From a virus: DNA of 48,469 nt. Shown piece by piece: positions 2,699 to 47,099 of the stretch (position 1 is the first letter of the stretch; each line of letters opens with the position of its first letter). The translations under genes and the position numbers were made by a program. Below the pieces are notes generated by a model. That model saw only the letters and a program-made list of their open reading frames with translations, searched no databases and had not been told where the DNA came from. The DNA lies in the IMG/VR virus record IMGVR_UViG_3300021400_000123, positions 1 through 48,469 of that record; one strand, 5' to 3'.

Positions 2699-2710
2699 GG
2701 AGGAATGAGC

Positions 2711-2935: not shown

Positions 2936-2940
2936 GAAAG

Positions 2941-7234: not shown

Positions 7235-7561
7235 ATGAGCGCATTCAAGGACATTATAGCCAGAGATGTGCATCAGACCTTCTTAAACCCTGATGAATTT
7301 TCAGACATCCATAAGGTCAACGGTAAGGATATGCCAGTTCAGATAGACACGAACGAGCAGATCGAGCGTGAGAAGAGGATGAACCAGAATGTGGACGGTG
7401 TCTACACGAACCAGAAGCTGATCTATGTGGCAGCTTCGGACTTCGGAGCGATGCCGAAGCAGGGAGCAATCCTCAATCTGGACGGAAAGATATACCGGGT
7501 AGCCGATGCGGTGGATGAATACGGAATCTATTCTATAACGATCGAGGCGAACAGAGCATGA
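7235..7561 (+). CDS. Putative head-tail connector/adaptor protein.
   Basis: Position in the neck module and translational coupling (TAGATG). 108 aa. Confidence 0.5.
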   Translation: MSAFKDIIARDVHQTFLNPDEFSDIHKVNGKDMPVQIDTNEQIEREKRMNQNVDGVYTNQKLIYVAASDFGAMPKQGAILNLDGKIYRVADAVDEYGIYSITIEANRA

Positions 7562-8678: not shown

Positions 8679-9036
8679 ATCAACAAAGAAAGCGCAGACA
8701 GCTAAAGAGGCCGAGGCGGAAGTAAAGGACGAAGTGGTAGAAGAGACTAAGGTCGAAGAAGCCGCAGAGCCTGAGAAGACCGAGGAAGTCGCAGAGGCAA
8801 CAGCGCAGGAGCCGAAGATGTATGTCGGACCCACGATACCGGGGGCAGGCATCCAGAACAGGGTATACACGGAGATACCCGAAGGGGCAGCGGCTCTGAT
8901 CAAGGAACACCCCGAATTCGGTAATCTGTTCATAGCCATCGAGGAATACCCGAAGGCGAACAGAATGCTCCGTGAAGGAACTGGTTACATTTTCAGTGCA
9001 TTCAACAAGGCACTGGGATATAAAAACAACAAGTAG
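8671..9036 (+). CDS. Hypothetical virion protein with an acidic Glu/Ala-rich N-terminal half.
   Basis: The ATG at 8671 overlaps the upstream stop. 121 aa. Confidence 0.5.
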   Translation: MSKSTKKAQTAKEAEAEVKDEVVEETKVEEAAEPEKTEEVAEATAQEPKMYVGPTIPGAGIQNRVYTEIPEGAAALIKEHPEFGNLFIAIEEYPKANRMLREGTGYIFSAFNKALGYKNNK

Positions 9037-15850: not shown

Positions 15851-17138
15851 CAACCCAAGGAAAGCCGAGGCAGCCTTCAAGTTTAACGGCAAGAATGTCA
15901 CGAAGACTCTGAAGAACTACCTCGAATCAGTAAAATACACCGATGTGGCATCCGGGAGCAGTGACCAGTTAGACATTCAACTTCAGAACATCAATGCGAA
16001 CTGGCTCGGCAAGTGGTACCCGACCAAGGGAGACAAAGTGGTCGGTTCGTTCATTTTCCACAACTGGAAGAAGGACGGCAAAGACATCTCCCTGCCGCTC
16101 GGAAAATTCACGATGGATGATATCCGCTTTTCAGGCGGACCCATGACGGCACAGTTCGGATGCGTAGCGGTGCCGAATGATGAATCATTCAGAGTAAGAG
16201 AGAGAACCAAGACATGGAAGGGAATAACCATTCAGGGCATCGCCCAGGAGATAGCGAGCCGATACGGTCTATCCCTGAAGTATTCTGCACCGACAATCTC
16301 CATCAACGAACTGGAGCAGTCGGACAAAACGGATTGCGCCTTCTTATTCGACCTCTGTGACAAGTACGGAATCTCGATGAAGGTCTACGCAGGACAGATA
16401 GCAATCTATGATCAGGGAGCGATGGAGAGAAAGAAGTCGATAGCAACCCTGAAAAGAACCTCGTTCGTGGATGATCACTGGGATTTCACGGACACTCTCG
16501 CAGGGATCTACACCGGAGCAAGGATATCCTACAAGTCCGGCAAGGACAGTGAGGAAATCAGCATATACCTCGGCTTTCAGGCAGAGGACGCACCGGGAAG
16601 TCGTGTGCTTCGGATCAGCGAGACAGCGGACAGCGTGGAGGATGCCTACTACAAGGCAGCGGCCAAGGTCAACAAGTCCAATCAGGGCGCAACCACGATA
16701 TCGGCTGACATCTTCCCGAACCCGAAGATCTGCGCAGGAGTGACCGTGAAGGTCACAGGGATGGGTAAAGCGAACGGTAAATATTTTGTGGATAAGTCCA
16801 CGATCACAGTCGGGGAATCAGCCACAAAGCAGAGCATAGAGATGCACAAATGCCAGAGAAGGCTCGTGAACACGGCGGTACCGACACCACCTGCAGCGTC
16901 ACCTTCAGCACCTGCAGCGAAGTCATACAAGGAGGGAGATATCGTCCAATTCAATGGCGGAACTCACTATGTATCAAGCTACGCAGGAGCAAAAGGGTAC
17001 AATGCAAAGCCGGGACCGGCAAAGATTACGCATGATCCTACCTGCAAGGGCAACGGCGGAGCGCATCCATGGCATCTGGTACATACAGACAAGACATCCA
17101 ATGTCTACGGATGGGTAGACGAAGGAACATTCTCATAG
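15843..17138 (+). CDS. Baseplate hub/late-control gpD-like tail protein with a C-terminal SH3-like extension.
   Basis: 431 aa, positioned after gpX as in P2/Mu/PBSX tails. Confidence 0.75.
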   Translation: MSDNPRKAEAAFKFNGKNVTKTLKNYLESVKYTDVASGSSDQLDIQLQNINANWLGKWYPTKGDKVVGSFIFHNWKKDGKDISLPLGKFTMDDIRFSGGPMTAQFGCVAVPNDESFRVRERTKTWKGITIQGIAQEIASRYGLSLKYSAPTISINELEQSDKTDCAFLFDLCDKYGISMKVYAGQIAIYDQGAMERKKSIATLKRTSFVDDHWDFTDTLAGIYTGARISYKSGKDSEEISIYLGFQAEDAPGSRVLRISETADSVEDAYYKAAAKVNKSNQGATTISADIFPNPKICAGVTVKVTGMGKANGKYFVDKSTITVGESATKQSIEMHKCQRRLVNTAVPTPPAASPSAPAAKSYKEGDIVQFNGGTHYVSSYAGAKGYNAKPGPAKITHDPTCKGNGGAHPWHLVHTDKTSNVYGWVDEGTFS

Positions 17139-17151
17139 GAGGAACGAAAGC

Positions 17152-17625
17152 ATGGCAGAAAGACTGATAAGAATCGGCAGAGTGTCCTCCGTGAATGCGG
17201 CAAAGGGAATGGTCAGCGTGACATACCCAGACCTCGACAACTCCACTACCGGGGAGTTCCCGGTCTTCTCATTCACGGACGAATACAAGATGCCGAGTGT
17301 AGGGCAGGAGGTCCTCGTCCTGCATTTATCGAACGGACAATCCGCAGGCATCGTCCTGGGCAGATACTGGAACGGCTCGAACACTCCGCCTGTTAGTTCA
17401 GGCTTCAGGAAGGAAATGGGTGACAACTTCGGGCAGGCTTATATGGAATATAACGGCTCGGCATTAACCATTCACGCATCGAAGATCATACTCGATGGAG
17501 AAGTCGAGACGGACGGCTCGATCACGGTACCTGCGAAGGACGATGTGAAGGTGGGAGCAATCACCCTGAAGAACCATAAGCATACCGACAGCGTGGGTGG
17601 AAAGACCACCAAATCAGAAGCATAG
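17152..17625 (+). CDS. Baseplate spike/assembly protein V-like.
   Basis: 157 aa. IRIGRVSSVNAAKGMVSVTYPD...GQEVLVLHLSNG matches the OB-fold N terminus of gpV/Mu gp45 proteins. Confidence 0.75.
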   Translation: MAERLIRIGRVSSVNAAKGMVSVTYPDLDNSTTGEFPVFSFTDEYKMPSVGQEVLVLHLSNGQSAGIVLGRYWNGSNTPPVSSGFRKEMGDNFGQAYMEYNGSALTIHASKIILDGEVETDGSITVPAKDDVKVGAITLKNHKHTDSVGGKTTKSEA

Positions 17626-17637
17626 GAGGTATGACAC

Positions 17638-18033
17638 ATGGCAACATTAGCAAAATGGGGAGATATAACCTTCAGAGTCAACTCGGAGCAGGTCTTCTCC
17701 TTCAGGAATATGAAACGATCCTACTCGGCGAGATGGGCGGCACACAACATACCGGGGAAAAGACCGAAGATGGAGTTCCAGGGACCCGGCATGGATGAGA
17801 TCAGCATCGAGGTCATACTGGACGCAGAACTCGGAGTGAAGCCAAGGTCAGCGATGAAGAAATTCAGATCCGCAGCGAAGAAGGGTAAAGTCCATTACTT
17901 CTATGTGGGAGGAAAGAAGGTAGTCGCTCGGAAACTTTACATCTCCGCAGGAACGGAGAACTGGAACGAGATATGGAACGGCGGCGAACTGGTGAGAGCC
18001 ACAGCCACCCTGACATTTAACGAATACAGATAG
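17638..18033 (+). CDS. Tail protein, P2 gpU-like.
   Basis: 131 aa. The pattern W..H...GKRPKMEFQGPGMDEISIEVIL...TLTFNEY resembles gpU-family proteins. Confidence 0.6.
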   Translation: MATLAKWGDITFRVNSEQVFSFRNMKRSYSARWAAHNIPGKRPKMEFQGPGMDEISIEVILDAELGVKPRSAMKKFRSAAKKGKVHYFYVGGKKVVARKLYISAGTENWNEIWNGGELVRATATLTFNEYR

Positions 18034-18044
18034 GAGGTAAGGCG

Positions 18045-18380
18045 ATGGGTTTCACGAACTACATACAGACCGTCAATATGGACGGAATGTCAGACTTTGA
18101 AAGAATCGACCAGAACCTCCGCACTCTGATCGTTACACTGGAACAGACGCTACCGGGAAGTCGAGGCTTCGGACTTTCGATAGAAATCACCGACCTCATG
18201 CCGGAGCAGGCCAGAAACGACTTCGCAGCGGCTCTGGATGAAAAGGTGGAAGAGTTCATACCAGAGATAAGGATCGCAGACATCGAGATGGATGTGGGAG
18301 CGGACGGATCGATAACGATGCAGATCTATGTCGAGGAAAATGACGAATACGAGGAAGGAGATGAGGAAGAAGATGATTAA
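18045..18380 (+). CDS. Baseplate wedge protein, gpW/gp25-like.
   Basis: 111 aa. ...IDQNLRTLIVTLEQTLPGSRGFGLSI... is typical of the GPW/gp25 family. The gene lies upstream of the J-like gene. Confidence 0.78.
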   Translation: MGFTNYIQTVNMDGMSDFERIDQNLRTLIVTLEQTLPGSRGFGLSIEITDLMPEQARNDFAAALDEKVEEFIPEIRIADIEMDVGADGSITMQIYVEENDEYEEGDEEEDD

Positions 18381-19518
18381 CGCAATAAAGAACCTCCCTG
18401 AGGTCAGCTTCATAGACGGAAAGACCCTCGATGATGTCCAGTCTGAGATGGTCTCCGACTATGAGAAGAAATACAAAGAAGTGACAGGAAAGAGCCTGAC
18501 GCTTCGGAGAGCTGACCCGGAGACATTGAAACTCTATGCGGCTTCGGTTCAGATATACCACCTGCTCCTTCATATCGATATGGCAGGAAAGATGGATCTC
18601 CTGAAATACGCATACGGAGACTTTCTGGACAACCTCGGAGCACTCCGAGGAGTCACAAGGCTACCTGCGTATCCGGCAAAAGCAACGGTGCGCTTCACGC
18701 TTTCCGCAGTTCAGGCATCCGTGGTAACCATTCCACAAGGCACAAGGGTATCGAATGGAGATATCCTCTACTTCGCAACAGATGAGGTGGCAGAAATCCC
18801 GATAGGGCAGACCTATGTGGATGTACCCTGCACCTGCCTCGATGACGGAGAAGTAGGAAACGGACAGATGGCAGGAACGCTCAATTTTTTAGTAGACAGC
18901 ATCGCATACATCGGTAGCGTCTCCAACACCGAAGAGACCACAGGCGGATCCGAAATCGAATCGGATGATGACTTCGCAGACAGAATCTACCTCGCTCCCG
19001 GCTCGTATTCGGTAGCAGGACCCACGGACGCATACATCTACCACACGAAGTCCTACAGTTCAGCAATCGGCGATGTGGAAGTATCCTCGCCTGATGCCTG
19101 CGAAGTGGAAGTCCGCTTCTTGATGGCGGACGCAAGTATGCCGACCGCAGGACTGATCGCAGAGGTTCAGGATTATCTCTCCGCAGAAGACAAGAGACCG
19201 CTCACGGATCAGCTGACGGTACTCGCACCGACCGGGCAGAGCTTTGATGTCAATGTGAAATATTACATCAACAAATCGAATCAGGACACGGCGGTATCAA
19301 TCCAGTCATCGGTCAATGCAGCGATAGCGGAATACATCGCATGGCAGACAGGAACGATAGGAAGAGACATCAACCCTTCAGTTCTTACCCAGATGATGGT
19401 AGCTGCAGGAGCAAAGAGAGTGGAAGTAACCTCCCCGGCATTCACTACGGTGCCGACCGGGAGCGTAGCAAGAATCAATAACCAGACAGTCACATATGGA
19501 GGGGTAGAGGATGATTAA
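18373..19518 (+). CDS. Baseplate protein J-like.
   Basis: The ATG at 18373 overlaps the gpW stop (ATGATTAA). About 381 aa, in the position between W and I. Confidence 0.82.
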   Translation: MINAIKNLPEVSFIDGKTLDDVQSEMVSDYEKKYKEVTGKSLTLRRADPETLKLYAASVQIYHLLLHIDMAGKMDLLKYAYGDFLDNLGALRGVTRLPAYPAKATVRFTLSAVQASVVTIPQGTRVSNGDILYFATDEVAEIPIGQTYVDVPCTCLDDGEVGNGQMAGTLNFLVDSIAYIGSVSNTEETTGGSEIESDDDFADRIYLAPGSYSVAGPTDAYIYHTKSYSSAIGDVEVSSPDACEVEVRFLMADASMPTAGLIAEVQDYLSAEDKRPLTDQLTVLAPTGQSFDVNVKYYINKSNQDTAVSIQSSVNAAIAEYIAWQTGTIGRDINPSVLTQMMVAAGAKRVEVTSPAFTTVPTGSVARINNQTVTYGGVEDD

Positions 19519-20413
19519 ACTTTCAGAAGGTGAACTCCTCGACCTCTTACCTTCGCAGCTGAAGAACGACACGGATATGATCTGCCTTTCATACGCACTC
19601 AAATGCGCAGTAGAGCGACTGCTCCAATACGAAAGACAGACGATGACCGACAACTTCATCGACAGCCTCCCGGAGAAGATACTGGATGTACTGGCAGTGG
19701 AGCTTCGAAGTCCGTACTACCTCGACAGCATGGATATAGAGACGAAGAGGAACATCATCAAAAATACATTGATATGGCATACCAAGGCAGGAACACCCTC
19801 TGCGGTTTCAGAGATGATCACTGCCATATTCGGAGAGGGATATCTGGTGGAATGGTTCGACTTTACAGAGGGAGACAAGACACCGGGATACTTTGACATC
19901 GTAACCAACGCTCGAATGACCGAGGATATCGTGGAGAACTTCATGGCGATAATCAAGAGAGTCAAGAACGAGCGAAGCCACATCAGGAGGATCCTGATCA
20001 ACAGAAAAGTGGAACACCCTGAATGGGTAGGATGGGGAGCGACATCCTCTCCGAAGAGACCGATCACGAATGCACCTGAAAGAGCCTCTGGCATTCAGGG
20101 AGAAGAAAGCACTGCAACGCAGGCGGTCTCATCCCCGAAAGAAGCAATCCTGAACGGATACCCGAAGAGGGAATCCGACACCGAAGGATATGAGTACGCA
20201 GGTGCTACGGCGATGTCCGCACCAAAGGAAACTATAGGGAATAGCACGACTCCGGCAACACGGTCGGTACAAAGAAGCGATAAAGCACTGGCAGCAGCGA
20301 TATCTTCTCCGCACATTCGGATCCTGAATGGCGGACTGAAGGAGGAGAGCGCACCAGAGCAAAAGCAGAAGGTAGCGGTCGGAGCCGTGTCCAATTCTAA
20401 AATAATTTTATAG
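19511..20413 (+). CDS. Tail protein I-like (baseplate/fibre attachment) with a repeat-bearing C-terminal half.
   Basis: N terminus LLDLLPSQLKNDTDMICLSYAL...LAVELRSPYY is typical of gpI/XkdU-type proteins. The C-terminal 125 aa carry 5 copies of an SSPK-x-x-I-x-N-like motif. Confidence 0.78.
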   Translation: MIKLSEGELLDLLPSQLKNDTDMICLSYALKCAVERLLQYERQTMTDNFIDSLPEKILDVLAVELRSPYYLDSMDIETKRNIIKNTLIWHTKAGTPSAVSEMITAIFGEGYLVEWFDFTEGDKTPGYFDIVTNARMTEDIVENFMAIIKRVKNERSHIRRILINRKVEHPEWVGWGATSSPKRPITNAPERASGIQGEESTATQAVSSPKEAILNGYPKRESDTEGYEYAGATAMSAPKETIGNSTTPATRSVQRSDKALAAAISSPHIRILNGGLKEESAPEQKQKVAVGAVSNSKIIL

Positions 20414-20431
20414 CAAGGAGGAACAGAAGCT

Positions 20432-20986
20432 ATGGCTGGAGTATTCAACCAAGCCGTCCTGACCAAGAAGGGAATCGCACTTCTGGCAAAAGCACAAGCC
20501 GGACGATGCACGATCAACCTCACAAAAGCGGTATCAGGTAACGGCACCTACTCGGCAAGTGAAGACTTGACAAGCAGGACAGCACTAAAGAGCCAGATGC
20601 AGGAATTCAGCATCAACACGGTAATCGTGCAGAACACCACGAATGTCTATGTCAAATTCATCATCACAAACTACCCGGACGCAAGCCACGCACTCGCCCA
20701 GGGGTACTATGTGAGAGAGATCGGCTTATATGCCACTGACCCGGACGAAGGAGATATTCTGTACGCAATCGCAACAGCGGTCACAGACCAGTGGGATTAT
20801 ATGCCTTCGTACAATAATCTCCTGCCTTCGACCATAACCATCGAAATGCTGACCGAGGTGGCGAACGCATCCACGGTCACCATCGAAGCACCGAACAAGA
20901 TGTACCTCTACGATGACAACACCGGGGAGAAATACCAACTCGGAGTAGAGGACGGATTACTTTATTTTGAGGAGGTAGCAGAATGA
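20432..20986 (+). CDS. Tail fibre N-terminal (tail-collar/DUF3751-like) protein.
   Basis: N terminus MAGVFNQAVLTKKGIALLAKAQAG...INLTKAVSGNGTY resembles the conserved N terminus of P2 gpH-type fibres. The stop overlaps the next start (ATGA). Confidence 0.68.
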   Translation: MAGVFNQAVLTKKGIALLAKAQAGRCTINLTKAVSGNGTYSASEDLTSRTALKSQMQEFSINTVIVQNTTNVYVKFIITNYPDASHALAQGYYVREIGLYATDPDEGDILYAIATAVTDQWDYMPSYNNLLPSTITIEMLTEVANASTVTIEAPNKMYLYDDNTGEKYQLGVEDGLLYFEEVAE

Positions 20987-22224
20987 GCAAAGTATATGTA
21001 GCAGACAAGGAGACGCTCGACAAAATCTATGACATCGTCTCCGCAGAAGGAGTCTACGGCTTCATCGAACACTGCGCCACGCTTGCACCGGGCAGCAGGA
21101 TCGAGTACATCGGCAAGAACGCAGACTACACACCCATCAGTGTGACCATGGGCGGAGGTTTCTCCCTTGGATCCTGGGGCGGCTTCTCCGTTCTGGCAAA
21201 TAACAAGCCTTGGATGGTAAACGCAGACGGAACACCCGACTACGAGTTAGACCCTGACGATTACACGAAGAAACTGGACGGATCGGCATCCGATGTCTCC
21301 AATACCTCATACGCAGGAGGAGCATTCTCGTGGATCTGCAAGATCTGGAAGAAGGAGTACATGGTAGGCGATGACCGCTATGTTCTCTTTTCAGAGACCA
21401 AGAAGGAAGGCTTCGAGCCTGTCGGCTTCATCGACAGTAACAACGCAGAACTCGAAGGAGTATGGCTGCCGATGTTCTACAACACCAACGGAACAACGAA
21501 GGCAACCTGCATCGGCGCAGGACAGCCGGAGGCAAACAATACTACGGCAAACCAGAAGACTGCCATCGATGCATTCGGATCCAGAGCGAAGTTCCTCGGC
21601 GGTGCTATCGTTGAGACTCTTCAGGATCTGCTCATCATGTGGGCGAAGACCACAGACCTGCAGGGAGCATACGGCAAGGGCAACTGCTCCGGCTATGTGA
21701 ATGACGCAACCCAGAACTACGGTGTTCTTGCGAATGCAGTAGTAGGCGGCGGACAGTTCTACGGCACCACAGACGGAACATCCCTCAATAAGATCCTGCA
21801 CTCCATCGTCCTGGGCACTTATCAGCAGTGGATGAGAGACCCTTACACCATCTGCGTAAGCGGCAAGCTGAAGGTTTCCAAGAACTACGCATATGACCTC
21901 GGAGCTTCAGGGTATACCGACACAGGAGTGAACTACGATGAGGTAGCAGATACCTCATGGCATTATCCTCACAAGTATAAGACAGTCGCAGGCTTCGGTT
22001 CAGTTCCTTCTCTTCCGCCTTATAACGGCTCTACTGCACTCGGCGGATGCGATGGCTTTATCGTAAACAGGAGCATCACGGCGGTCGCCATTCGGTTCGG
22101 TACTTGCCGCCATGGCCTCTTTGATGGGGTTCGTGCTTTGAATTTGTGCGACACTGCTACGACTGCGGACTGGTACCTCGGCTCGGCCGTTCTTCTCCTG
22201 CCACCTGTCGGCGTAGCCGCATAG
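20983..22224 (+). CDS. Tail fibre/receptor-binding protein, the DGR target gene, with the variable region at its C terminus.
   Basis: 413 aa. The last roughly 48 codons contain the VR, which matches the downstream TR except at TR adenines. Confidence 0.88.
   Translation: MSKVYVADKETLDKIYDIVSAEGVYGFIEHCATLAPGSRIEYIGKNADYTPISVTMGGGFSLGSWGGFSVLANNKPWMVNADGTPDYELDPDDYTKKLDGSASDVSNTSYAGGAFSWICKIWKKEYMVGDDRYVLFSETKKEGFEPVGFIDSNNAELEGVWLPMFYNTNGTTKATCIGAGQPEANNTTANQKTAIDAFGSRAKFLGGAIVETLQDLLIMWAKTTDLQGAYGKGNCSGYVNDATQNYGVLANAVVGGGQFYGTTDGTSLNKILHSIVLGTYQQWMRDPYTICVSGKLKVSKNYAYDLGASGYTDTGVNYDEVADTSWHYPHKYKTVAGFGSVPSLPPYNGSTALGGCDGFIVNRSITAVAIRFGTCRHGLFDGVRALNLCDTATTADWYLGSAVLLLPPVGVAA
22080..22188 (+). 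repeat. DGR variable region (VR).
   Basis: 109 nt that align without gaps to 22329-22437. There are 13 mismatches, all opposite TR adenines. VR encodes ...FGTCRHGLFDGVRALNLCDTATTADWYLGSA. Confidence 0.92.
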
Positions 22225-22227
22225 GGG

Positions 22228-22249
22228 GTCTGGGGGTCTTCCCCCAGAC
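22228..22249 (+). promoter_or_regulatory. GC-rich hairpin/cruciform element 4 nt after the target-gene stop codon: 9-bp stem, 4-nt loop.
   Basis: GTCTGGGGG-TCTT-CCCCCAGAC read directly. No U-tract follows, so it does not look like a simple terminator. Confidence 0.6.
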
Positions 22250-22309
22250 TAAACGAGAAGCAGCAATAGGCTATCTTTTTGTAACGGATTTATAAAACTT
22301 AACAGGGGG

Positions 22310-22631
22310 AAGGACTGCCGACACCAGGGGCGGTCGCCATTCGGTTCGGTAATTGCAACAATGGCCTCAATGATGGGGTTCGTGCTTTGAATTTGAACAA
22401 CACTGCTACGAATGCGAACTGGAACATCGGCTCGGCCTGTTTTTCTATCATTATGGAACATTAACCAAATGGCAGTCCTTAACCTACACCTCTGACGGAT
22501 GAAAAGCCGTTTACTCGCCATTACTGGAAAGATGAGTGAAAATGAATCCGATACAGGGTGAGTCATAAAGCGGTCGCACCTATGGCTCACAGGAGATAGA
22601 AGAAAAAATATCCCATAGGAGTAGAAGTTTT
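22310..22631 (+). ncRNA. Putative DGR template RNA: TR plus the downstream spacer up to the RT start.
   Basis: ORF-free. A 10-bp complement brackets the TR (22310-22319 AAGGACTGCC and 22471-22480 GGCAGTCCTT). The spacer contains a hairpin at 22558-22590 and a nested helix within about 22494-22549. Confidence 0.5.
22329..22437 (+). repeat. DGR template repeat (TR).
   Basis: A non-coding copy of VR. It has 25 adenines, many in AAY codons if read in the VR frame (...FGNCNNGLNDGVRALNLNNTATNANWNIGSA). Confidence 0.92.
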
Positions 22632-23831
22632 ATGCGAAAGAAGGAGGCAGAAGAGGCGATACAATCCTGCGGCTGCCAGAAGGGCATGAAACAATACAAG
22701 TATCTGTATCGAAAGATGCTCGATGAGCAGACCGTTCGGAAAGCCTATAAGAAACTTCGCAAAGGAAAGACCAAGAGGAAAGAAATACAATTCATTGACG
22801 CACACCTCGATGAAGAGGTGGCGAAGATGATAGAAATGATCAGAAACACGAGACCGGGCGAAGTCGAACACCCGGAACTCGCATTCGTACCATGCAAGAG
22901 GACTCCACGGTACATCCATGAACACGGAAAGACCAGGCGAATCTATATGCCGGAGATCCACGAGCAATGGCTACACCACATCATCGTCCTGATATTGGAG
23001 CCAATCATCACGGCAACAGCCTACCCGTACTCCTGCGGATCATTCCCGAAGAGAGGTGCTCACTACGGCAAGAGGCAGATGGAGCGATGGATAAAAAGCG
23101 GAGCAGGAATCAGGAACTTCGCAAAAATCGACATCCGTCATTTTTATGACAGCATCCAGGTCGGCATCCTGATGAGGGAGCTGCGGATCAGGATAAAGGA
23201 TGACTGGTTTCTCTACATCATAGAGCTTTGCTTCAGAGGGATAAGAAAAGGAATACCTCTCGGCTTTTACATAAGCCAGTGGCTCGCAAATTACCTGCTC
23301 GAACCTTTAGACAGGCTCGTGACAGAGACACTGGGAATCAAGAAATACCTCAGGTACATGGATGATATGACATTCTTCGCAGAGAGCAAGAAGAAACTCC
23401 ACGAAACCATCTCGGCAATTCGGATGTTTCTCGGTCGGAGGCTTAGGCTAAAGCTGAAGCACAACTATCAGGTCTGCAAGTTCGACTTCGTAAAGAAGAC
23501 CGGGCAGAGGATAGGAAGAGTCATAGACTTCATGGGTTTTGTCTTCTTCAGAAGCCGCACGGTGATCCGAAAGAGCATCATGCTATCGGCAACCAGACTG
23601 GCGAAGAAGATGAACAAAAATAAACAGAAACTGCGTGGATACTACCGAAAGCACATCGAGGCGATGATCTCATACATGGGATGGTTCTCCTGCACGGACA
23701 CCTACCACTGCTATGAAGAACACATCAAGCCACAGGTCAACATCGGGAACTTGAAGCGCATCGAATCAAAACTGCAAAGGAGGCAGAATCATGAAAGCAT
23801 GGAAACAGGAAAGATGCTCCGAGCAGCCTGA
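22632..23831 (+). CDS. DGR reverse transcriptase.
   Basis: 399 aa. It has the YMDD catalytic motif (LRYMDDMTFF), an LGFYISQ match to the DGR-type [I/L]GxxxSQ motif, and an N-terminal ...AYKKLRKGKTKRKE... segment. It lies directly downstream of the TR. Confidence 0.9.
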   Translation: MRKKEAEEAIQSCGCQKGMKQYKYLYRKMLDEQTVRKAYKKLRKGKTKRKEIQFIDAHLDEEVAKMIEMIRNTRPGEVEHPELAFVPCKRTPRYIHEHGKTRRIYMPEIHEQWLHHIIVLILEPIITATAYPYSCGSFPKRGAHYGKRQMERWIKSGAGIRNFAKIDIRHFYDSIQVGILMRELRIRIKDDWFLYIIELCFRGIRKGIPLGFYISQWLANYLLEPLDRLVTETLGIKKYLRYMDDMTFFAESKKKLHETISAIRMFLGRRLRLKLKHNYQVCKFDFVKKTGQRIGRVIDFMGFVFFRSRTVIRKSIMLSATRLAKKMNKNKQKLRGYYRKHIEAMISYMGWFSCTDTYHCYEEHIKPQVNIGNLKRIESKLQRRQNHESMETGKMLRAA

Positions 23832-24060
23832 AGAGCTTCAGGACATCGGAGGCGGTCTCTACATGGAGAGACGGAACATCACGGCAGAGAACCACGAAGC
23901 AGACGAAGCGGCAGGGGTGGAGGCGTATACCGACTATGTCTGCGAGAGCCGTGAAATCACGCAGGACGAGTACAATATGCTCAAGAGCATCAACGAGCAT
24001 AACGACCAGGAGGCTATCGATGCGTACACCGAGCAGCTGTTAGAGGAAGGAGTGATCTAA
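23791..24060 (+). CDS. Hypothetical acidic protein.
   Basis: AGGAGG lies 7 nt upstream of the ATG at 23791. The ORF overlaps the RT 3' end by 41 nt. 89 aa. Confidence 0.5.
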   Translation: MKAWKQERCSEQPEELQDIGGGLYMERRNITAENHEADEAAGVEAYTDYVCESREITQDEYNMLKSINEHNDQEAIDAYTEQLLEEGVI

Positions 24061-24061
24061 G

Positions 24062-24199
24062 ATGAGAACATTAGTACAGAGCCTGAGAAGGCTATACCTT
24101 AAAGGGAAGGTCACCGTGGAGAAACTCCAGAGCATGGTAGAAGCAGGCACTATCACCCAGGAAGAGTTCGACTACATCACAGGAGGATCTGTGGGATGA
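24062..24199 (+). CDS. XkdX-like small protein; below the ORF-track size cutoff.
   Basis: 45 aa: MRTLVQSLRRLYLKGKVTVEKLQSMVEAGTITQEEFDYITGGSVG. The C-terminal ...ITxEE(F/Y)xxITG motif is the XkdX hallmark. GAAGGAG RBS. Confidence 0.68.
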   Translation: MRTLVQSLRRLYLKGKVTVEKLQSMVEAGTITQEEFDYITGGSVG

Positions 24200-24393
24200 T
24201 GGGTGACGCAATCCGGGAGATTAAACTGGAACTCTTCGAGAGCCAGTCTGAAATCATCCGAATTCAGTCCGAAGTGATCGATGACTTATTCCGCCTCTTA
24301 GGTCAACACCTGGAGGCGGATGAACTCGACAGCCTGCCAGTCATAGAGAAGATAAACCGGGCAGCTTCGCTTCGGAAAGAACACGAACTATGA
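24196..24393 (+). CDS. Hypothetical protein.
   Basis: ATGA coupling to the XkdX-like gene. 65 aa, predicted helical. Confidence 0.45.
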   Translation: MMGDAIREIKLELFESQSEIIRIQSEVIDDLFRLLGQHLEADELDSLPVIEKINRAASLRKEHEL

Positions 24394-24411
24394 CAGGAAG
24401 GAGGGCTGACC

Positions 24412-24720
24412 ATGGAAGAGACGATATCAAGAAAAGAACATGAGGAGTTCGCAAAGCGCATAGACGAAGAGAACCACAGACAGAATCGCAGAATCGAAGC
24501 ACTTGAAGAGACCGTCCGTCAGATTTCAGACCTCACGGCCACGGTTAAGGAACTGGCTGTGAACATGAAGAATATGCTGACAGAACAGGAGAAGCAGGGT
24601 GTAAGACTTGCGAAGATGGAAAGCAAGGACGGCGAAATGTGGCGCACGGCTCTGACGCATATCCTCACGGCGATCATCGGTGGAGTGATTGCTTTTATTT
24701 TTGCGAAAATTGGAATGTAA
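24412..24720 (+). CDS. XhlA-like membrane protein associated with lysis.
   Basis: 102 aa with an N-terminal coiled coil and a single C-terminal TM segment (WRTALTHILTAIIGGVIAFIFAKI), as in XhlA. It lies upstream of the holin and endolysin genes. Confidence 0.68.
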   Translation: MEETISRKEHEEFAKRIDEENHRQNRRIEALEETVRQISDLTATVKELAVNMKNMLTEQEKQGVRLAKMESKDGEMWRTALTHILTAIIGGVIAFIFAKIGM

Positions 24721-24736
24721 AGGAGGGCAAAACATC

Positions 24737-24958
24737 ATGAAGAACATCCAAAACAGCAACTGGTGGAAGGCAGCAGGCATCAGAGCCTTAAAAACTGTAT
24801 GCCAGACAGCCATCGCCACAATCGGTACTGCAGCACTTGTGGAGCAGGTCAACTGGGTAGCGGTAGCAAGCGCATCCGCTCTCGCCGGGATCCTCTCGCT
24901 TCTGACAAGCCTTGCAGGAATCCCTGAGATTGAGAAGGAGGAGCAGAACAATGGATGA
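24737..24958 (+). CDS. Putative holin.
   Basis: AAGGAGGG RBS. 73 aa with two hydrophobic segments (RALKTVCQTAIATIGTAALV and VAVASASALAGILSLLTSLAGIP). It sits immediately upstream of the endolysin gene. Confidence 0.68.
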   Translation: MKNIQNSNWWKAAGIRALKTVCQTAIATIGTAALVEQVNWVAVASASALAGILSLLTSLAGIPEIEKEEQNNG

Positions 24959-25064
24959 GAAGGACATCACCAGAGAAGAAGATCTGAACGAAGAGGCACT
25001 CGATGAACTCTCTAACGGCAAAGGGGAAGATGAGGAAGATGAGAACTCCCCGAAGGGGTGACCT

Positions 25065-26480
25065 ATGACGAAGGAAGAATTCATAGAGAAGATCGCAGCA
25101 CTCATCATCAGACACGCACCGACCTATGGGATAGCCGTACACTCTCCAATCATCGCCCAGGCGATACTGGAGAGTGCATACGGCACTTCGGAACTTGCGA
25201 AGAATGCGAATAACTACTTCGGATTGAAGTGGCGAAAAGGCAGGTGTCCGAGTGCGACAGGCATCTATAAGAAGGTCGGCAGCGAACAGAACCCGGACGG
25301 CTCATACATAAGCGAACTTATGGAATGGTGCCAGTTCCCGGACATGGAAAGCGGAGTGAAGGGATACTTCGAGTTCACGAACATCCAAAACTACGCAAAC
25401 CTTAAAGGAGTGACAGACCCGAAGACCTACCTGCAGAAGATAAAAGCAGACGGATATGCCACTTCACTCAAATATGTGGATAACCTCATGGCGGTTATCC
25501 AGACATGGAATCTCACGAAATACGATAACAAGGAGGTGGACAAAGTGAGCAATAGTTCATTAGTAAATTACACAAAACTGTCCCCGAACCATTCAGGAGC
25601 GAGAACGCACAGAATCGACAGGATCAGTCCTCACTGCGTAGTAGGCCAGTGCAGCGTAGAGACCCTCGGTAACATCTTCGCTCCCAAAAGCAGACAGGCA
25701 TCCTGCAACTACGGCATCGGACCCGATGGAAGAGTCGGGATGTATGTCGAGGAGAAGAACCGCTCCTGGTGTACTTCATCCAGTGCAAACGACCAGAGAG
25801 CCGTGACCATTGAATGCGCCTCAGACACGAAAGCACCCTATGCTTTCAAGGATGCGGTCTACAACAGGCTGATAGACCTCTGCGAAGACATCTGCAGGAG
25901 GAATGGAAAGAAGAAGCTGCTCTGGATCAGCGACAAGGCGAAGGCTCTGGCATACGAACCGAAGAGCGATGAGATGCTCCTGACGGTTCACAGATGGTTC
26001 GCAAATAAGTCCTGTCCGGGAGACTGGCTCATGGCAAGGATGGATAATCTGGCATCGAAGGTAACCGCAAGACTCGGAGGAAAATCCGCAGGAGGTGGCG
26101 GTAATGCAGGGAGCATCATCTACAGAGTCAGGAAGACGGCAACGGACTCCAAGACGCAGATCGGAGCATACAAGGTACTGGAGAACGCAAAGAAGGCAGC
26201 GGATGAACATCCGGGATATGCGGTCTTCGATGCAAGCGGAGTGAAGGTCTATCCGATTTCGGAACAGGCGGTCACAACTGGTACCAAGCCATACACAGTG
26301 ATGATCACCACAGCCGTGCTGAATGTCCGCAAAGGACCCGGAACGGAGTGCGGCATCGCTACGACAGTCCGCAAGGGAGAAATCTACACCATCGTGGAGG
26401 AATCCTCAAACGGCAAATGGGGCAAGCTGAAGAGCGGAGCAGGGTGGATATCCCTCGCTTATACCCAGAGGAGCAAATAA
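25065..26480 (+). CDS. Multidomain endolysin: N-terminal glucosaminidase (GH73-like), central N-acetylmuramoyl-L-alanine amidase, and C-terminal SPOR-like and SH3b-like wall-binding domains.
   Basis: Motifs read directly: AQAILESAYGTSELAKNANNYFGLKW for GH73; RISPHCVVGQ...ASCNYGIGPDGRVGMYVEE...NDQRAVTIECA for the amidase_2 type; LNVRKGPGTECGIATTVRKGEIYTIVEE...WGKLKSGAGWISLAY for SH3b. Confidence 0.88.
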   Translation: MTKEEFIEKIAALIIRHAPTYGIAVHSPIIAQAILESAYGTSELAKNANNYFGLKWRKGRCPSATGIYKKVGSEQNPDGSYISELMEWCQFPDMESGVKGYFEFTNIQNYANLKGVTDPKTYLQKIKADGYATSLKYVDNLMAVIQTWNLTKYDNKEVDKVSNSSLVNYTKLSPNHSGARTHRIDRISPHCVVGQCSVETLGNIFAPKSRQASCNYGIGPDGRVGMYVEEKNRSWCTSSSANDQRAVTIECASDTKAPYAFKDAVYNRLIDLCEDICRRNGKKKLLWISDKAKALAYEPKSDEMLLTVHRWFANKSCPGDWLMARMDNLASKVTARLGGKSAGGGGNAGSIIYRVRKTATDSKTQIGAYKVLENAKKAADEHPGYAVFDASGVKVYPISEQAVTTGTKPYTVMITTAVLNVRKGPGTECGIATTVRKGEIYTIVEESSNGKWGKLKSGAGWISLAYTQRSK

Positions 26481-26535
26481 CGGTTCGGATGCCGCACTGT
26501 AGCCATGCACGGTGTGGTGTTTGAATAAATAAAGA

Positions 26536-26571
26536 GGCGGCAAGGAGTAAAATCCTGCCGCCTTCTTTTTT
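26536..26571. terminator. Bidirectional rho-independent terminator between the convergent late (+) and lysogeny (-) transcription units.
   Basis: GGCGGCAAGGA-gtaaaa-TCCTGCCGCC, followed by TTCTTTTTT on the + strand and preceded by an AAATAAATAAAGA run that gives a T-rich tract on the - strand. Confidence 0.7.
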
Positions 26572-26619
26572 GCTTGCTGACATCCCAGACTTGTGATATC
26601 ATGGCACACAAGAGGGGGT

Positions 26620-26850
26620 TTAAGGGGGTAAAACATCGCCCTCTTTTTTCATGAAAAAAATGTCGTAAACCTGATCCGCAGTCAGGCAATACCGATGAAC
26701 GATGACGCACATCTGCGGATAAGTAAAATCATGAACACCATGGAGAACCTGGCTGACATTCTGCCGGGAGACACCAAGGGCATCCGCCAGAGAAGTAATG
26801 GAATCGCCGTAGGCTTTCATTTCCTCCTGTAAAAGAACCACATCAAGCAT
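26620..26850 (-). CDS. Small HTH-type DNA-binding protein, one of the lysogeny-block cargo genes.
   Basis: GAGGAGG RBS 9 nt upstream of the ATG at 26850. HTH-like segment SITSLADALGVSRQNVSQVLHG. Confidence 0.55.
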   Translation of the reverse strand: MLDVVLLQEEMKAYGDSITSLADALGVSRQNVSQVLHGVHDFTYPQMCVIVHRYCLTADQVYDIFFMKKEGDVLPP

Positions 26851-26872
26851 TAGAACACACCTCCTCACTAAT

Positions 26873-27103
26873 TCAGGCAAATGGAACGCAGCACTCTGCG
26901 CACCCTCTCGGATCCATCATCATCGCCATCGCATCAGGGTAATGACGAAGGCGAGCCAATTCTTCATACAGAGCGTCCGCCTGCGCTTCGAGCGGAGCAT
27001 AGAAGCCTGCCGGAGCAAAGCCGCAACCCAACTCTTCATCAGCGGCGATAAAGCGGTAGATTTCGTCAACCTTTTTTATTATTTCCTTTTTCTGTCTCGT
27101 CAT
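26873..27103 (-). CDS. Hypothetical protein (cargo).
   Basis: GGAGGTG RBS. 76 aa. No motif recognised. Confidence 0.5.
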   Translation of the reverse strand: MTRQKKEIIKKVDEIYRFIAADEELGCGFAPAGFYAPLEAQADALYEELARLRHYPDAMAMMMDPRGCAECCVPFA

Positions 27104-27106
27104 AAT

Positions 27107-27394
27107 TTACACCTCCATTTTATACCCGGCATATTCAACCGTAGACTTGATAGCGTTCAGAGTTCTGGCACAGCCGAAGGAGTAAACCTTCTGCTTTTCA
27201 ACCCGGCCGTTCTTCAGGAAGGAAACGGAAACGGCATCCGAAGAGAGGAGATAAACCTCAACCCGATAGGTTTCGGTAGACTTTCCATACCAGGCAACCT
27301 CGACATCTTTCGACCATTCACGAGCAAGAGCATCATCGCCAGAAGCCTGAAAACCATATGCGCTTTTTAAGATTTCAAGAATTCGACTCATCAT
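27107..27394 (-). CDS. Hypothetical protein (cargo).
   Basis: AAGGAGG RBS 7 nt upstream. 95 aa. No motif recognised. Confidence 0.5.
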   Translation of the reverse strand: MMSRILEILKSAYGFQASGDDALAREWSKDVEVAWYGKSTETYRVEVYLLSSDAVSVSFLKNGRVEKQKVYSFGCARTLNAIKSTVEYAGYKMEV

Positions 27395-27406
27395 ACCAAG
27401 ACCTCC

Positions 27407-27652
27407 TTAATTGTAATCATGCAGCAGGATCGCCAGAGCCATCTGGGTAGCCTCGTCTTCCGGCTCGATATCCCAACCACGGTCATAATTCAGAGTAGTA
27501 ACACCGTTTGCCTTTATCGTCAGCTTTGAGATGCGGCCACCATCGATGCCGAACTCGCTGCCTTCTTCAAAGCACTTGCACCAGTAATGGCAGATCACCG
27601 TAGCCTTGTCTTTGCTAAAAGCGTTTATCCCGATCGTTCCTTCTTTCCACAT
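27407..27652 (-). CDS. Hypothetical protein (cargo).
   Basis: AGGAGG lies 8 nt upstream of the ATG at 27652; the ORF-track GTG start at 27661 overlaps the SD. 81 aa: MWKEGTIGINAF...GIDGGRISKL...YDRGWDIEP... Confidence 0.55.
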   Translation of the reverse strand: MWKEGTIGINAFSKDKATVICHYWCKCFEEGSEFGIDGGRISKLTIKANGVTTLNYDRGWDIEPEDEATQMALAILLHDYN

Positions 27653-27821
27653 ATTCAGCACCTCCTGCGTTTTGCTTTCCTTTTGGATTGTCTGTATGTT
27701 AACTCTGCCGGAGACTTATAGCAAGTTATACTTGCGGAGTAATATGCACAAAGATATCCGCCTTTCATTGTTCACTTTTTCATTATGAGGGGCGAACCCC
27801 CACATTATAAAAAAGCGAAGA

Positions 27822-29387
27822 TTAGAGCCTCAAAAAAAGAGTCTGACCATCCCAGGTACACTCCTGCACCACTTCCCGGACAATGGCATTCTTCTCATCT
27901 GCAGACAGACCAGACAGAGACCGCATCATCCGTCCGATTTCCTCAGAACGCTCTGCAGAAGACCGGGCAGATGCCGCAGACCTTCTGGCTTCAGTTTTCG
28001 CAATCTCAATCTCACGGTTTATAGCAGCAAGAGACAGATCCTCCGCCTCAATCTGGGCGATGATATACTTCGATGCGGCAGATCCATCCGCAAGGCTCTC
28101 GGTCAGCCTGCCGATACGAGTGCGGATAGCCGAAGCCTTCCGTTCCAGATCCCGAAGAGCAGAGCCATCATCAGAAGGAGACTCCGCCTCGGCATATTTG
28201 CGGATCACAGAAGGGTCCGCTTCGATTTCAGAGAAGACAGCAAGGACACGGTCATCGAGTTTCGAGCATTTAATCATGGACATATCGCAAGCCTCTGCAC
28301 CCTGCCTCATTCTTTTCAGACAGTAATAGGATGACAGGATCCTGCCGTGCGCTAACTTCTTTCGAGACACCTGCATCAAGCCTCCACACTTCGCACAGCG
28401 GAGCGTACCCTTCAGGAGAGGGATATCATACTTCTGTTTTTTCTCGAAGGTGTTCTGCCGAAAACGAGCCTGAACCGCAAGCCACACATCCACAGGAACA
28501 AACGGCTCATGAATGCCTTCAGTGACCACCCAGGCATCATGAGGCTGAACCTGATGCTTTTTATTTTTCTCGGTGGAGCGGCCATAGATCATCACTCCGC
28601 ACTTCCCATCCCACGACTCACGCTCATCTGCCATCTGACAGCCAAGGCCAGAGTAGAAGTCCCAGACTTCAGGAGTAGCAGGAACGCAGTACGGCATCGT
28701 CAGGATCTTATGCAGCTGCGTGGTGGAGAAGAATGCGCCATTGACAGTCCGCCTGCCCTGACGCTTGAATTCGGTCTCCATGCCCTGAAGAGAATATCCG
28801 CCATCGAGGAACTCCTTATAAATACCAAGGACATACTCGGCAGCCTCAGGAACAGGAACGATGGTGCAGTGCTTCTTCCCATTCACCTGGATATGCTCAC
28901 GGCGATACCCGTAGGGAGGATTACCACCAGTCCAGAGTCCCTTCTTTGCCAGACCGATCATGTTATCGGTAACACGAGCGGCAATAGTCTCCCTTTCCAT
29001 CTGGGCGAAGACCATCGTGACATACATCATCGCCCTGCCGATTGGAGTGGCAGTATCAATATTTTCTTTGATGGAAATAAACATGACACCCTTCTCTTCG
29101 AGAGAAGCGTAGATATTAGCGAAGTCCTTCACATCACGAGAGATACGGTCAAGCTGATAGACCACCAGAGCATCCACAAGGCCGTCCGCAATATCAGACA
29201 AGAGCCTCTGCAGACCGGGGCGGTTCGTATTGGCACCAGTAAAGCCTTCGTCCTGGTAGCACTCGAAGGACTCCACAGAGCCGGAGAACTTCAGATCCAC
29301 ATACTCCCGGCACATCCTCTGCTGATTATCCACAGAATCAGACTTGTCAGAATAAACGGACTTTCGTCCATAAGTCGCAAAATGCAT
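27822..29387 (-). CDS. int: Large serine recombinase (integrase).
   Basis: AAGGTGG RBS before the ATG at 29387. It has an N-terminal resolvase-type catalytic domain (ATYGRKSVYSDKSDSVDNQ...VVYQLDRISRD), a recombinase domain, a zinc-ribbon CxxC...C region and a C-terminal coiled coil. Confidence 0.9.
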   Translation of the reverse strand: MHFATYGRKSVYSDKSDSVDNQQRMCREYVDLKFSGSVESFECYQDEGFTGANTNRPGLQRLLSDIADGLVDALVVYQLDRISRDVKDFANIYASLEEKGVMFISIKENIDTATPIGRAMMYVTMVFAQMERETIAARVTDNMIGLAKKGLWTGGNPPYGYRREHIQVNGKKHCTIVPVPEAAEYVLGIYKEFLDGGYSLQGMETEFKRQGRRTVNGAFFSTTQLHKILTMPYCVPATPEVWDFYSGLGCQMADERESWDGKCGVMIYGRSTEKNKKHQVQPHDAWVVTEGIHEPFVPVDVWLAVQARFRQNTFEKKQKYDIPLLKGTLRCAKCGGLMQVSRKKLAHGRILSSYYCLKRMRQGAEACDMSMIKCSKLDDRVLAVFSEIEADPSVIRKYAEAESPSDDGSALRDLERKASAIRTRIGRLTESLADGSAASKYIIAQIEAEDLSLAAINREIEIAKTEARRSAASARSSAERSEEIGRMMRSLSGLSADEKNAIVREVVQECTWDGQTLFLRL

Positions 29388-29414
29388 AGAAAAACCACCT
29401 TTCTGTTGTGGAAA

Positions 29415-29463
29415 GAACCGAAAGATGGTAGAATTCAAATAGGGTTGTGATTTCTTTCGGTTC
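29415..29463. repeat. Perfect 11-bp inverted repeat with a 27-bp spacer, upstream of int. Candidate attP or int regulatory site.
   Basis: GAACCGAAAGA (29415-29425) and TCTTTCGGTTC (29453-29463), read directly. The element spans 49 bp and lies 28-76 nt upstream of the int start. Confidence 0.35.
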
Positions 29464-29482
29464 ATCCGACAAAGGAATCCGA

Positions 29483-29524
29483 AGCCGTCACCTTTTCCTT
29501 GGAAGGGTGGCGGCTTTTTTGTTT
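29483..29524 (+). terminator. Hairpin plus T-run; terminator-like on the + strand, i.e. antisense to the lysogeny genes.
   Basis: AGCCGTCACC-ttttccttggaag-GGTGGCGGCT (one G.U pair) followed by TTTTTTGTTT. Confidence 0.4.
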
Positions 29525-29789
29525 ACTCATTAACACCCAGACCAGGGTCACCATTATAAAAGGGCAAATAAGTCCTTTCACATTTCTTACAAAGGCGGTA
29601 GCCTTTCTGCTCCGCTTCTTTCCGGGCAACCCGAACGCATTCATCTATACCATTCCCAGAAAAGCACCCGTGGCTCAAATGATACACAGATCGACCAGGA
29701 ATCAGGAGGACATCCTCCTCTGATTTTTTGCGAAGCCGTTCAACCTCAGGATCAGGACGGCTACCAAAGAGAAAACTCAAAAGACCCAT
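29523..29789 (-). CDS. Hypothetical small protein with an H/C-rich (HxxxxC...CxxC) motif, between the repressor and integrase genes.
   Basis: GGAGGTG RBS 7 nt upstream of the ATG at 29789. 88 aa: MGLLSFLFG...YHLSHGC...GYRLCKKC. Confidence 0.55.
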   Translation of the reverse strand: MGLLSFLFGSRPDPEVERLRKKSEEDVLLIPGRSVYHLSHGCFSGNGIDECVRVARKEAEQKGYRLCKKCERTYLPFYNGDPGLGVNE

Positions 29790-29853
29790 ACAATCACCTC
29801 CAGTCAAATAAAGAGCCGCCAGTTCGGCTCTATCAAAAAGAATTCTATCGGAA

Positions 29854-47095: not shown

Positions 47096-47099
47096 CTTG

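Follow-up and report, generated by a model that had tools for sequence, protein, structure and literature searches.

Target, TR and RT without an accessory gene, a functional and recently active diversity-generating retroelement in the tail module of a temperate phage: evidence from related genomes and from the RNA around its template repeat

Diversity-generating retroelements (DGRs) have been catalogued by the tens of thousands, and phage tail-fibre targets with C-type-lectin folds are their textbook case; about a quarter of DGRs are without Avd, and the element described here bears on how these work. An element of this kind was analysed in IMG/VR virus record IMGVR_UViG_3300021400_000123 (positions 1 to 48,469; this whole stretch of 48,469 nt is called the window), where a tail-fibre gene carrying a variable repeat (VR), a template repeat (TR) and the gene of a reverse transcriptase (RT) follow one another on one strand. 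It was concluded, with a probability of about 0.95, that the locus is a functional DGR with recent activity, built as 'target – TR – RT' without an accessory gene and placed where the tail module ends.

The closest cultured relative is FP_Epona (Eponavirus; MG711462.1), which came from a Faecalibacterium prausnitzii isolate, whereas the window apparently came from a rumen or gut metagenome. Their genes follow one another in identical order: baseplate J, P2 gpI, tail-collar fibre, Mtd-like target (annotated in FP_Epona as 'BPP-1-like major tropism determinant protein'), TR, RT, an open reading frame (ORF) of 89 amino acids (aa), XkdX and lysis genes; RNA of the RT-4 family lies at the same place, and both phages are temperate with a large serine recombinase. 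The RTs are 64% and the 89-aa ORFs 60% identical, but there is no megablast nucleotide similarity, so that the two are different species and probably belong to different genera. For Epona the accessible text of Cornuault et al. 2018 (PMC5883640) describes the DGR with its TR/VR pair, a target of the FGE/Mtd superfamily and the absence of an Avd homologue by remote-homology tools; the recent VR turnover, the RT-4 assignment and the TR clamp given below for the window do not appear in that text. The element of the window is an Epona-type DGR of Architecture A1, a kind already published for this cultured phage.

Architecture A1 was named by Wu et al. 2018 (PMC5758913); in their survey 29% of 372 DGRs were without any accessory gene, a distant avd was not seen either, and an Avd-independent variant of retrohoming was proposed. 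The window has the same core: target, TR and RT stand on one strand without avd, HRDC, MSL or CH1, and the Avd gene that belongs to the cassette of the BPP-1-type Architecture B (avd – TR – RT) is missing. With BPP-1 (mtd – avd – TR – brt) the window has in common a phage tail-fibre target, a C-terminal VR, a fold (here predicted) of the C-type-lectin type, an AAY-rich TR, a GC-rich 3' end of the repeat, a downstream hairpin and a structured RNA in the spacer from TR to RT. The core features of the window are:

20983..22224, plus strand: DGR target gene, 413-aa distal tail-fibre protein with a predicted C-type-lectin/FGE-like C-terminal domain (phrog_5302, structure model)
22080..22188, plus strand: VR, matches the TR over 109 nt without a gap; the 13 mismatches are confined to TR adenines
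22329..22437, plus strand: TR, non-coding, 25 adenines (alignment with the VR)
22632..23831, plus strand: DGR reverse transcriptase, 399 aa, isoelectric point (pI) 10.0 (RVT_1, E 1.4e-15; phrog_1423, E 1.3e-90)

Repeat pair: the alignment of VR and TR was recomputed and came out exactly as in the initial annotation, 109 nt each without a gap (offset 249, identity 88%). The pair is the sole long direct repeat within the region 20800–24100 that was read; a search with each A replaced by N gave just these two copies, one VR and one TR, in the whole window. The base composition of the TR is A25 C26 G31 T27. All mismatches fall at TR adenines (13/25 A positions, 0/84 non-A positions; hypergeometric P = 2.2e-10), in agreement with the earlier counts, and the ten codon changes listed there were reproduced one by one: N374T, N376R, N377H, N380F, N389C, N390D, N394T, N396D, N398Y and I399L. 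Read in the VR frame, 14 TR adenines are at codon position 1, 11 at position 2 and none at position 3. The statement that they sit in AAY codons holds for 20 of the 25 (ten codons); the other five are in ATT, GAT, ACT, ACG and ATC. Conversion of AAY into NNY gives access to 15 amino acids and to no stop codon; the ceiling for ten AAY and five other A-bearing codons is 15^10 × 4^5 = about 5.9e14 proteins. The VR, which had been taken for the last roughly 48 codons of the fibre, is indeed near the C-terminal end but covers codons 366–402 of 413 and is followed by 11 invariant codons; the template adenines are placed near the 3' end of a coding target, where they alter amino acids without creating stops.

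Recent activity: this was judged between assemblies, not reads. A sister contig from another sample of the same study (L081) was compared with positions 16632–29831 of the window; 17 differences were found in 13,200 nt, all of them in the VR at TR-adenine sites, the TR and the rest of the other 13,091 nt being identical. It follows that the last rewriting of the VR is younger than every other mutation in these 13 kb. The DGR reading of the initial annotation, drawn from adenine-restricted divergence, is supported. At the protein level, P0134, a target homologue in the 90% cluster to which the window belongs, has 11 deviating residues, all in codons with a TR adenine and none elsewhere. Two further contigs (L199 and L201) were retrieved by a metagenome scan with a 28-mer lying wholly downstream of the VR; a search for VR alleles with long flanks had given no match, and the shorter downstream anchor succeeded. 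Their TRs are 100% identical to that of the window, though the genomes are only about 84% identical to it overall, and their VRs differ from this TR at 11 and 18 sites, respectively, all adenine sites. The four VR alleles that share this one TR have 23 polymorphic sites, 23/23 at TR adenines, with 23/25 adenines used; among the 16 closest target homologues, 179/183 VR-codon differences are on the 15 codons with a TR adenine.

The same pattern is seen in more distant relatives. From 80 viral contigs retrieved through the RT alone, nearly all with enough upstream DNA have a TR of their own some 300 nt ahead of the RT and, about 240–270 nt ahead of this TR, a VR, with mismatches mostly at adenine sites. 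Among 51 distinct TR/VR pairs 51.9% of adenines were mismatched, compared with 0.4% of C, 0.7% of G and 3.1% of T; most T mismatches are at repeat positions of at least 110, i.e., in the flank past the 109-nt core. The adenine value, about 50% per site as in BPP-1, stands beside the 52% published for the BPP-1 enzyme (bRT) in vitro.

Four relatives (L107, L158, L159 and L160) have neither TR nor RT, and only 70–110 nt separate their fibre gene from the 89-aa ORF; the TR–RT unit behaves as an insertion/deletion cassette. These genomes keep a VR-like C terminus ('frozen VR'). As a negative control, L158–L160 differ from one another at 19–82 positions, with 0 in the segment equivalent to the VR. 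These data bear on the possibility that the VR differences came from homologous recombination among fibre alleles, or from chimeric assembly, rather than from retrohoming. Phage tail-fibre genes are recombination hot spots, the genomes are mosaic (the 89-aa ORF is 99% identical in L199, its neighbours about 87%), and metagenome assemblies collapse micro-diverse regions; but neither process can confine all differences to template adenines (23/23 sites among the alleles, 17/17 in L081, 13/13 in the window), a chimera would still need an underlying pool diversified at adenine sites, and the DGR-less relatives of similar divergence are invariant just in the equivalent segment. Because of the adenine restriction this explanation is effectively refuted, and hardly any credence is left to it.

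The stretch 22080–22485, taken as the cis-acting block (VR non-A positions, target tail, hairpin, intergenic spacer, 5' clamp strand, TR, post-TR spacer, 3' clamp strand), is 96–100% identical to that of L199, L201 and L206, compared with 80–88% for the flanking genes; outside the block the identity to the same three genomes is 86% in the N-terminal part of the target, 87.5% in the RT gene and 86–91% in RT-4. Such conservation is unusual and goes beyond what is described in the accessible parts of the published accounts; it would be explained either by strong selection on the cis elements or by recent recombinational spread of the ~400-nt TR/VR block.

It was also considered that the TR/VR divergence is a record of past activity and that the element is now dead. 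Current activity cannot be shown by one genome, the DGR-less relatives tell that loss occurs in this phage group, and one relative (L122) has a frameshifted RT. Set against this are the two assemblies identical at 13,183/13,200 positions and different only at the 17 TR-adenine sites of the VR, the RT ORF intact with all catalytic residues, and the 96–100% conservation of the cis elements; a fossil is, accordingly, regarded as very improbable. In L122 (IMGVR_UViG_3300028968_000009, about 2383–3500) the RT reading frame is broken by a frameshift behind '...RRYRLKLKK', where a different frame takes over; either the DGR is decaying or the assembly is in error.

Reverse transcriptase: the motifs that had been reported downstream of the TR were found at 23259–23279 (LGFYISQ) and 23355–23366 (YMDD). 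The key residues are D167, L210-G-F-Y-I-S-Q216, Y242-M-D244-D245 and R102, and the three catalytic aspartates are intact. The best PDB match is 8ub7_A (E 1.5e-15; a group II intron RT follows with E 8.3e-14), which was taken as the Bordetella phage bRT by its residue numbers (I181, G182, Q187, D138, D215, D216, R74 and I76 as in the cryo-EM paper). Residues align as follows: D167 with D138, D244/D245 with D215/D216, L210–Q216 with I181–Q187 and R102 with R74; R74 and I181 of bRT are published promoters of adenine mutagenesis, and their equivalents are thus shared, as is the motif [I/V/L]GxxxSQ, the signature of DGR RTs, in place of which other RTs have QGxxxSP. The enzyme adjoins the TR, has an intact active site and carries this signature; it is about 70 residues longer than that of BPP-1 (399 vs 328 aa). 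Its family is present in prophages of Lachnospiraceae, Oscillospiraceae and other Clostridia (gut and rumen) with up to 77% identity.

An RT of another system (group II intron, retron or Abi/DRT), with the repeats adjacent by coincidence, would fit the similarity to NCBIfam models of group II intron maturases (100.6 bits), retron RTs (51.7 bits) and Drt3a, and the 'retron-type' annotation of some deposited relatives. However, every one of these scores is far under its family cut-off (300 bits for the maturase, 235 for the retron RT), the Rfam search, by gathering or E-value thresholds, returned RT-4 and no group II intron or retron RNA in the window, the motif is LGFYISQ and not QGxxxSP, bRT is the best solved relative, and a TR/VR pair accompanies the RT in essentially every relative with enough flanking DNA. 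With neither such an RNA family nor a score above the cut-off, membership in the group II introns or retrons can be given next to no weight.

Boundary of the repeat: the following elements are found at and behind the 3' end of the VR.

22178..22198, plus strand: 3' boundary of the VR, GC-rich end CGGCTCGGCC, then flank GTTCTTCTCC
22227..22250, plus strand: GC-rich hairpin GGTCTGGGGG-tctt-CCCCCAGACT, 10-bp stem, 4-nt loop, 3 nt past the target stop codon

Homology of TR and VR stops at 22188/22437 and can be continued only with an indel and mismatches; non-A mismatches across the DGR family likewise concentrate at repeat positions of at least 110. The VR flank GTTCTTCTCC is unlike the flank TGTTTTTCTATC on the TR side (22438–22449), an asymmetry of the IMH/IMH* kind, and by this analogy the VR 3' boundary may have an IMH-like role. 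G-rich stems with short loops are found 20–65 nt past the VR in most related loci. The hairpin 22227–22250 has no T-run and was not called by the terminator scan; by analogy with the hairpin/cruciform of BPP-1, a role in retrohoming is conceivable, although it is located 38 nt past the repeat and that of BPP-1 directly after the IMH. The candidate directionality elements, i.e., the GC-rich repeat end, the divergent flanks and the 10-bp hairpin, all recur in relatives.

RNA elements: the region from the TR to the RT gene was aligned for 46 distinct loci, beginning at TR-32 and running up to the RT start, and contains the following features, which, together with the absence of an Avd gene, go beyond the initial annotation.

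22306..22320, plus strand: TR-clamping helix, 5' strand, ends 8 nt before the TR, pairs with 22470–22485
22438..22469, plus strand: AU-rich spacer from the TR to the 3' clamp strand, candidate priming region (UUCUAUC 22443–22449 conserved; AA 22468–22469 invariant)
22470..22485, plus strand: TR-clamping helix, 3' strand, pairs with 22306–22320
22485..22601, plus strand: RT-4 RNA (Rfam RF03025), 117.2 bits vs gathering score 73.5, full length of the model (1–118)

RT-4 is the only Rfam family found in the window. In Weinberg et al. 2017 (PMC5737381), proximity to RT genes was the basis on which RT-1 to RT-19 were defined; only RT-10 was tied to a DGR (the TR–RT interval of BPP-1), and the others were speculated to serve DGRs or retrons. 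In the window RT-4 adjoins the RT gene as in the family definition, and the TR clamp before it is outside the Rfam model. Its helices are 96–100% paired in the 46 loci, with compensatory changes; it is at the same place in 13/13 RT-bearing relatives tested, FP_Epona included, and is absent from the DGR-less L159 and from the distant Butyrivibrio phage Arawn. A literature search gave no paper naming both RT-4 and the diversity-generating retroelement. RT-4 was assigned as the TR-to-RT spacer RNA of this DGR lineage; this assignment, like the covarying clamp around the TR in a lineage without Avd, extends the published descriptions as far as their accessible text goes.

RNAalifold, unguided, recovered the RT-4 stems and a long-range helix of 22306–22317 with 22473–22485, which in the window extends to 22320 with 22470 and encloses the TR. 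Compensatory changes are found in 10/11 pairs of this helix; 90.9% of cells are paired, and it beats shuffles in 31/42 loci. Its strands are wholly different between lineages and still complementary (GAACGGCTGGC/GCCAGCCGTTC, ATAGGGACGGC/GCCGTCCCTAT, AACATGGAGGCG/TGCCTCCATGTT). Over 38 RNA pairs, 96.3% of cells are paired (78.6% in shuffles), with a covariation score of 0.568 vs 0.224 shuffled; this was reached by 0/500 shuffles, and slid controls gave 0.07–0.11.

The clamp has its counterpart in the 'cPRT Stop' of BPP-1, likewise a duplex of sequences flanking the TR, whose end and the 5' limit of copying are a few nt apart: there the avd 3' end pairs with Sp 59–70, and cDNA synthesis ends a few nt before the duplex. 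The 5' strand is in non-coding DNA in the window, and in BPP-1 it is inside avd; the spacer RNAs belong to different Rfam families, RT-4 and RT-10. At the place of the Avd-binding stem-loop of BPP-1 the window has no conserved stem-loop. A hairpin right after the TR was tried as its equivalent in two registers; A was 76.7% paired vs 76.6% in shuffles, without covariation, and B was 62.4% paired with a weak signal, and neither is supported. The priming adenosine of BPP-1 is 2 nt before the 3' strand of the cPRT Stop duplex; by analogy with this residue (Sp A56) priming may take place in cis from the AU-rich spacer 22438–22469, and the invariant AA 22468–22469, directly 5' of the 3' clamp strand, is a lead only.

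The conserved UUCUAUC (22443–22449) is an exact complement of the conserved GAUAGAA at the RT-4 3' end (22595–22601). Both are nearly invariant in the 46 loci, hence beyond the reach of covariation, and a few loci would break the pairing; judged by complementarity, a tertiary or a template:primer contact may be formed.

Target: the gene upstream overlaps the target start codon in ATGA and is the following:

20432..20986, plus strand: tail-collar fibre N-terminal protein, 184 aa (Pfam Phage_tail_fib PF12571, E 3e-12)

The claimed 413-aa fibre target stands as ORF 20983–22224, which matches phrog_5302 ('tail protein') with E 1.5e-80 over profile positions 128–546; no Pfam match was obtained, including none to FGE-sulfatase. 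The 184-aa protein matches positions 2–137 of the same profile. Since the two ORFs match successive parts of phrog_5302, the fibre is split here into two genes and is one protein in other phages. The two-gene split is also kept in FP_Epona.

An AlphaFold2 model of the full-length target (67 homologues) had pLDDT 86.5 and pTM 0.90. Foldseek against PDB gave TaqVP of Thermus aquaticus (5vf4) as the sole significant match (E 1.4e-8, probability 1.0, TM 0.41–0.47), and Bordetella Mtd variants followed with marginal E-values. With residues 180–413 modelled alone the confidence was lower (pLDDT 71.8); TaqVP was best again (E 2e-4, probability 1.0), and the weaker matches were Mtd, EgtB, SenA, FGE and similar, all of the C-type-lectin/FGE fold. 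The check for a C-type-lectin fold proposed with the initial annotation thus came out positive, the domain model matching TaqVP first and then only proteins of this fold. Among predicted viral structures (BFVD) the matches were tail-collar fibre proteins (TM up to 0.87), an FGE-like protein and a TvpA-like protein. TaqVP and the target are both DGR-diversified, of the C-type-lectin fold and about 380–410 residues long; they differ in that TaqVP is a cellular protein and not a phage fibre, and have no detectable sequence homology (identity 11–12%). The models support the target as a divergent member of the C-type-lectin-fold DGR variable proteins (Mtd, TvpA, TaqVP).

Several points weigh against the conclusion drawn above or restrict it. 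The activity rests on differences between assemblies, and each assembly is a consensus whose underlying population may be mixed. Against solved DGR targets of the C-type-lectin fold, TaqVP included, the TM-scores are low (0.29–0.47), so that the fold is assigned at class level only. Binding of a receptor by the variable surface of the fibre and host-range switching are predictions. A BPP-1-like template:primer register of the TR 3' flank with the spacer was not found consistently across the 46 loci, and no priming site was located. No sigma-70-like promoter site was found upstream of the TR, near 22250–22330. Finally, the searches turned up neither Avd nor HRDC nor any further known accessory gene; Avd is essential in BPP-1, and the biochemical mechanism of BPP-1 is therefore not simply transferable.

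Search for Avd: it was sought as a basic protein of about 100–140 aa (Pfam PF05635 / TIGR02436). No Avd family was found among 43 window ORFs of 60–260 aa (E <= 0.01), and ten basic Avd-sized ORFs of the window gave no Avd match at E <= 1. The DGR had been called complete, which holds for the Avd-less architecture and not otherwise. The gap between VR and TR is 140 nt in the window and 90–232 nt in all relatives and leaves no room for a gene. An antisense ORF within the element (22249–22590, minus strand, 113 aa, pI 11) was considered as a reverse-strand avd and rejected; it is open in just 10/46 relatives, closed in the closest one, has no Pfam match at E <= 1 and is probably spurious.

The 89-aa ORF (23791–24060, plus strand; pI 4.2, phrog_20201) shares 41 nt with the 3' end of the RT gene, and XkdX is invariably the gene behind it. 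All RT-bearing relatives conserve this ORF, and in DGR-less relatives it directly follows the fibre gene. As a CH1-like DGR accessory it was rejected, since the four DGR-less relatives have the order target – 89-aa ORF – XkdX; the size is also mismatched, CH1 of Wu et al. being 160–169 aa long and restricted to the Bacteroides lineage 3A. Being present without a DGR, the acidic ORF belongs to the phage tail/lysis module and not to the DGR; it may be fibre-associated.

From these searches we infer that the element would be independent of any Avd-like protein. That the lineage carries out mutagenic retrohoming without any such protein is proposed tentatively, at slightly less than even odds. RT and RNA may instead be insufficient, and an unrecognised accessory may be required in trans, either a phage protein without similarity to Avd or a host protein; this is a doubtful but serious possibility. 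It has in its favour that bRT is inactive without Avd (10.1101/2023.10.23.563531), that the accessible text of Cornuault et al. suggests 'another small protein' for the Avd-less Faecalibacterium phage DGRs, and that small basic uncharacterised ORFs are present in the window, e.g., 6926–7273 (minus strand), 26942–27367 (plus), 43959–44438 (minus) and 46841–47302 (minus). It is opposed by the failure of the Avd searches at both thresholds, by the short VR–TR gap of all relatives, by the occurrence of the sole always-adjacent gene, the acidic 89-aa ORF, in DGR-less relatives too, by the lack of a conserved stem-loop at the Avd-binding position of BPP-1, and by the finding of Wu et al. that genomes with accessory-less DGRs have no distant avd.

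For this element the following course may be proposed. An RNA spanning roughly 22306–22601 would be made, perhaps running on into the RT mRNA; the long-range helix 22306–22320 / 22470–22485 would clamp both TR ends, and RT-4, directly after the clamp, would presumably dock the RT encoded just downstream. Copying of the TR into cDNA by the RT would be accurate at C, G and U, with about 50% misincorporation opposite A, and the cDNA would replace the VR in the fibre gene, the 3' limit being the GC-rich repeat end and the 5' limit being next to the clamp helix. With the 25 template adenines at codon positions 1 and 2 of 15 codons, no stops and up to about 6e14 variants would be expected; the variable residues would be exposed by a domain of the C-type-lectin type at the fibre's distal end, and the population could shift its receptor specificity.

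Genome context: upstream of the DGR are Baseplate_J, P2 gpI and the 184-aa tail-collar fibre N-terminal protein; downstream of the RT are the 89-aa ORF, XkdX, an XhlA-like protein, holin and endolysin, and then a large serine recombinase (27822–29465, minus strand). The locus is the tail-to-lysis junction of a temperate contractile-tailed Firmicutes phage, a phage of gut/rumen Clostridia. The exact RT protein occurs on contigs of 48,416–48,487 nt in several samples of one study, with differing start points, and therefore the 48.5-kb window is probably a whole, circularly permuted genome; these contigs suggest a complete temperate phage. To judge by the sample label, SHIW14-1_SAMN02144230, the study may be one of the rumen. 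A megablast nucleotide search of deposited phages gave no match, and the window contains no tRNA gene. The most distant members of the family, L078 (an IMG/VR contig) and L194 (an Erysipelotrichaceae metagenome-assembled genome), have a pair of neighbouring tRNA genes some 2.4 kb downstream from the end of the RT gene (8553–8707 and 7553–7707, respectively); the pair may mark a prophage attachment site.

As a DGR the element is ordinary; its value is that of a clean natural example of the Avd-less type, with sister genomes differing only at template-adenine sites, DGR-less relatives as a built-in control and cis RNA parts delimited by covariation. If retrohoming indeed proceeds here without an Avd-like protein, the longer and very basic RT (399 aa, pI 10), together with RT-4 and the clamp, would replace the scaffolding by the Avd pentamer of BPP-1; the upstream:downstream clamp ('cPRT Stop') would be a universal, Avd-independent feature of DGR RNAs, and no spacer RNA of an Avd-less DGR would have been defined before RT-4. 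With its assigned spacer RNA, conserved TR clamp and cultivable relative, the family is a practical system for the study of Avd-independent retrohoming.

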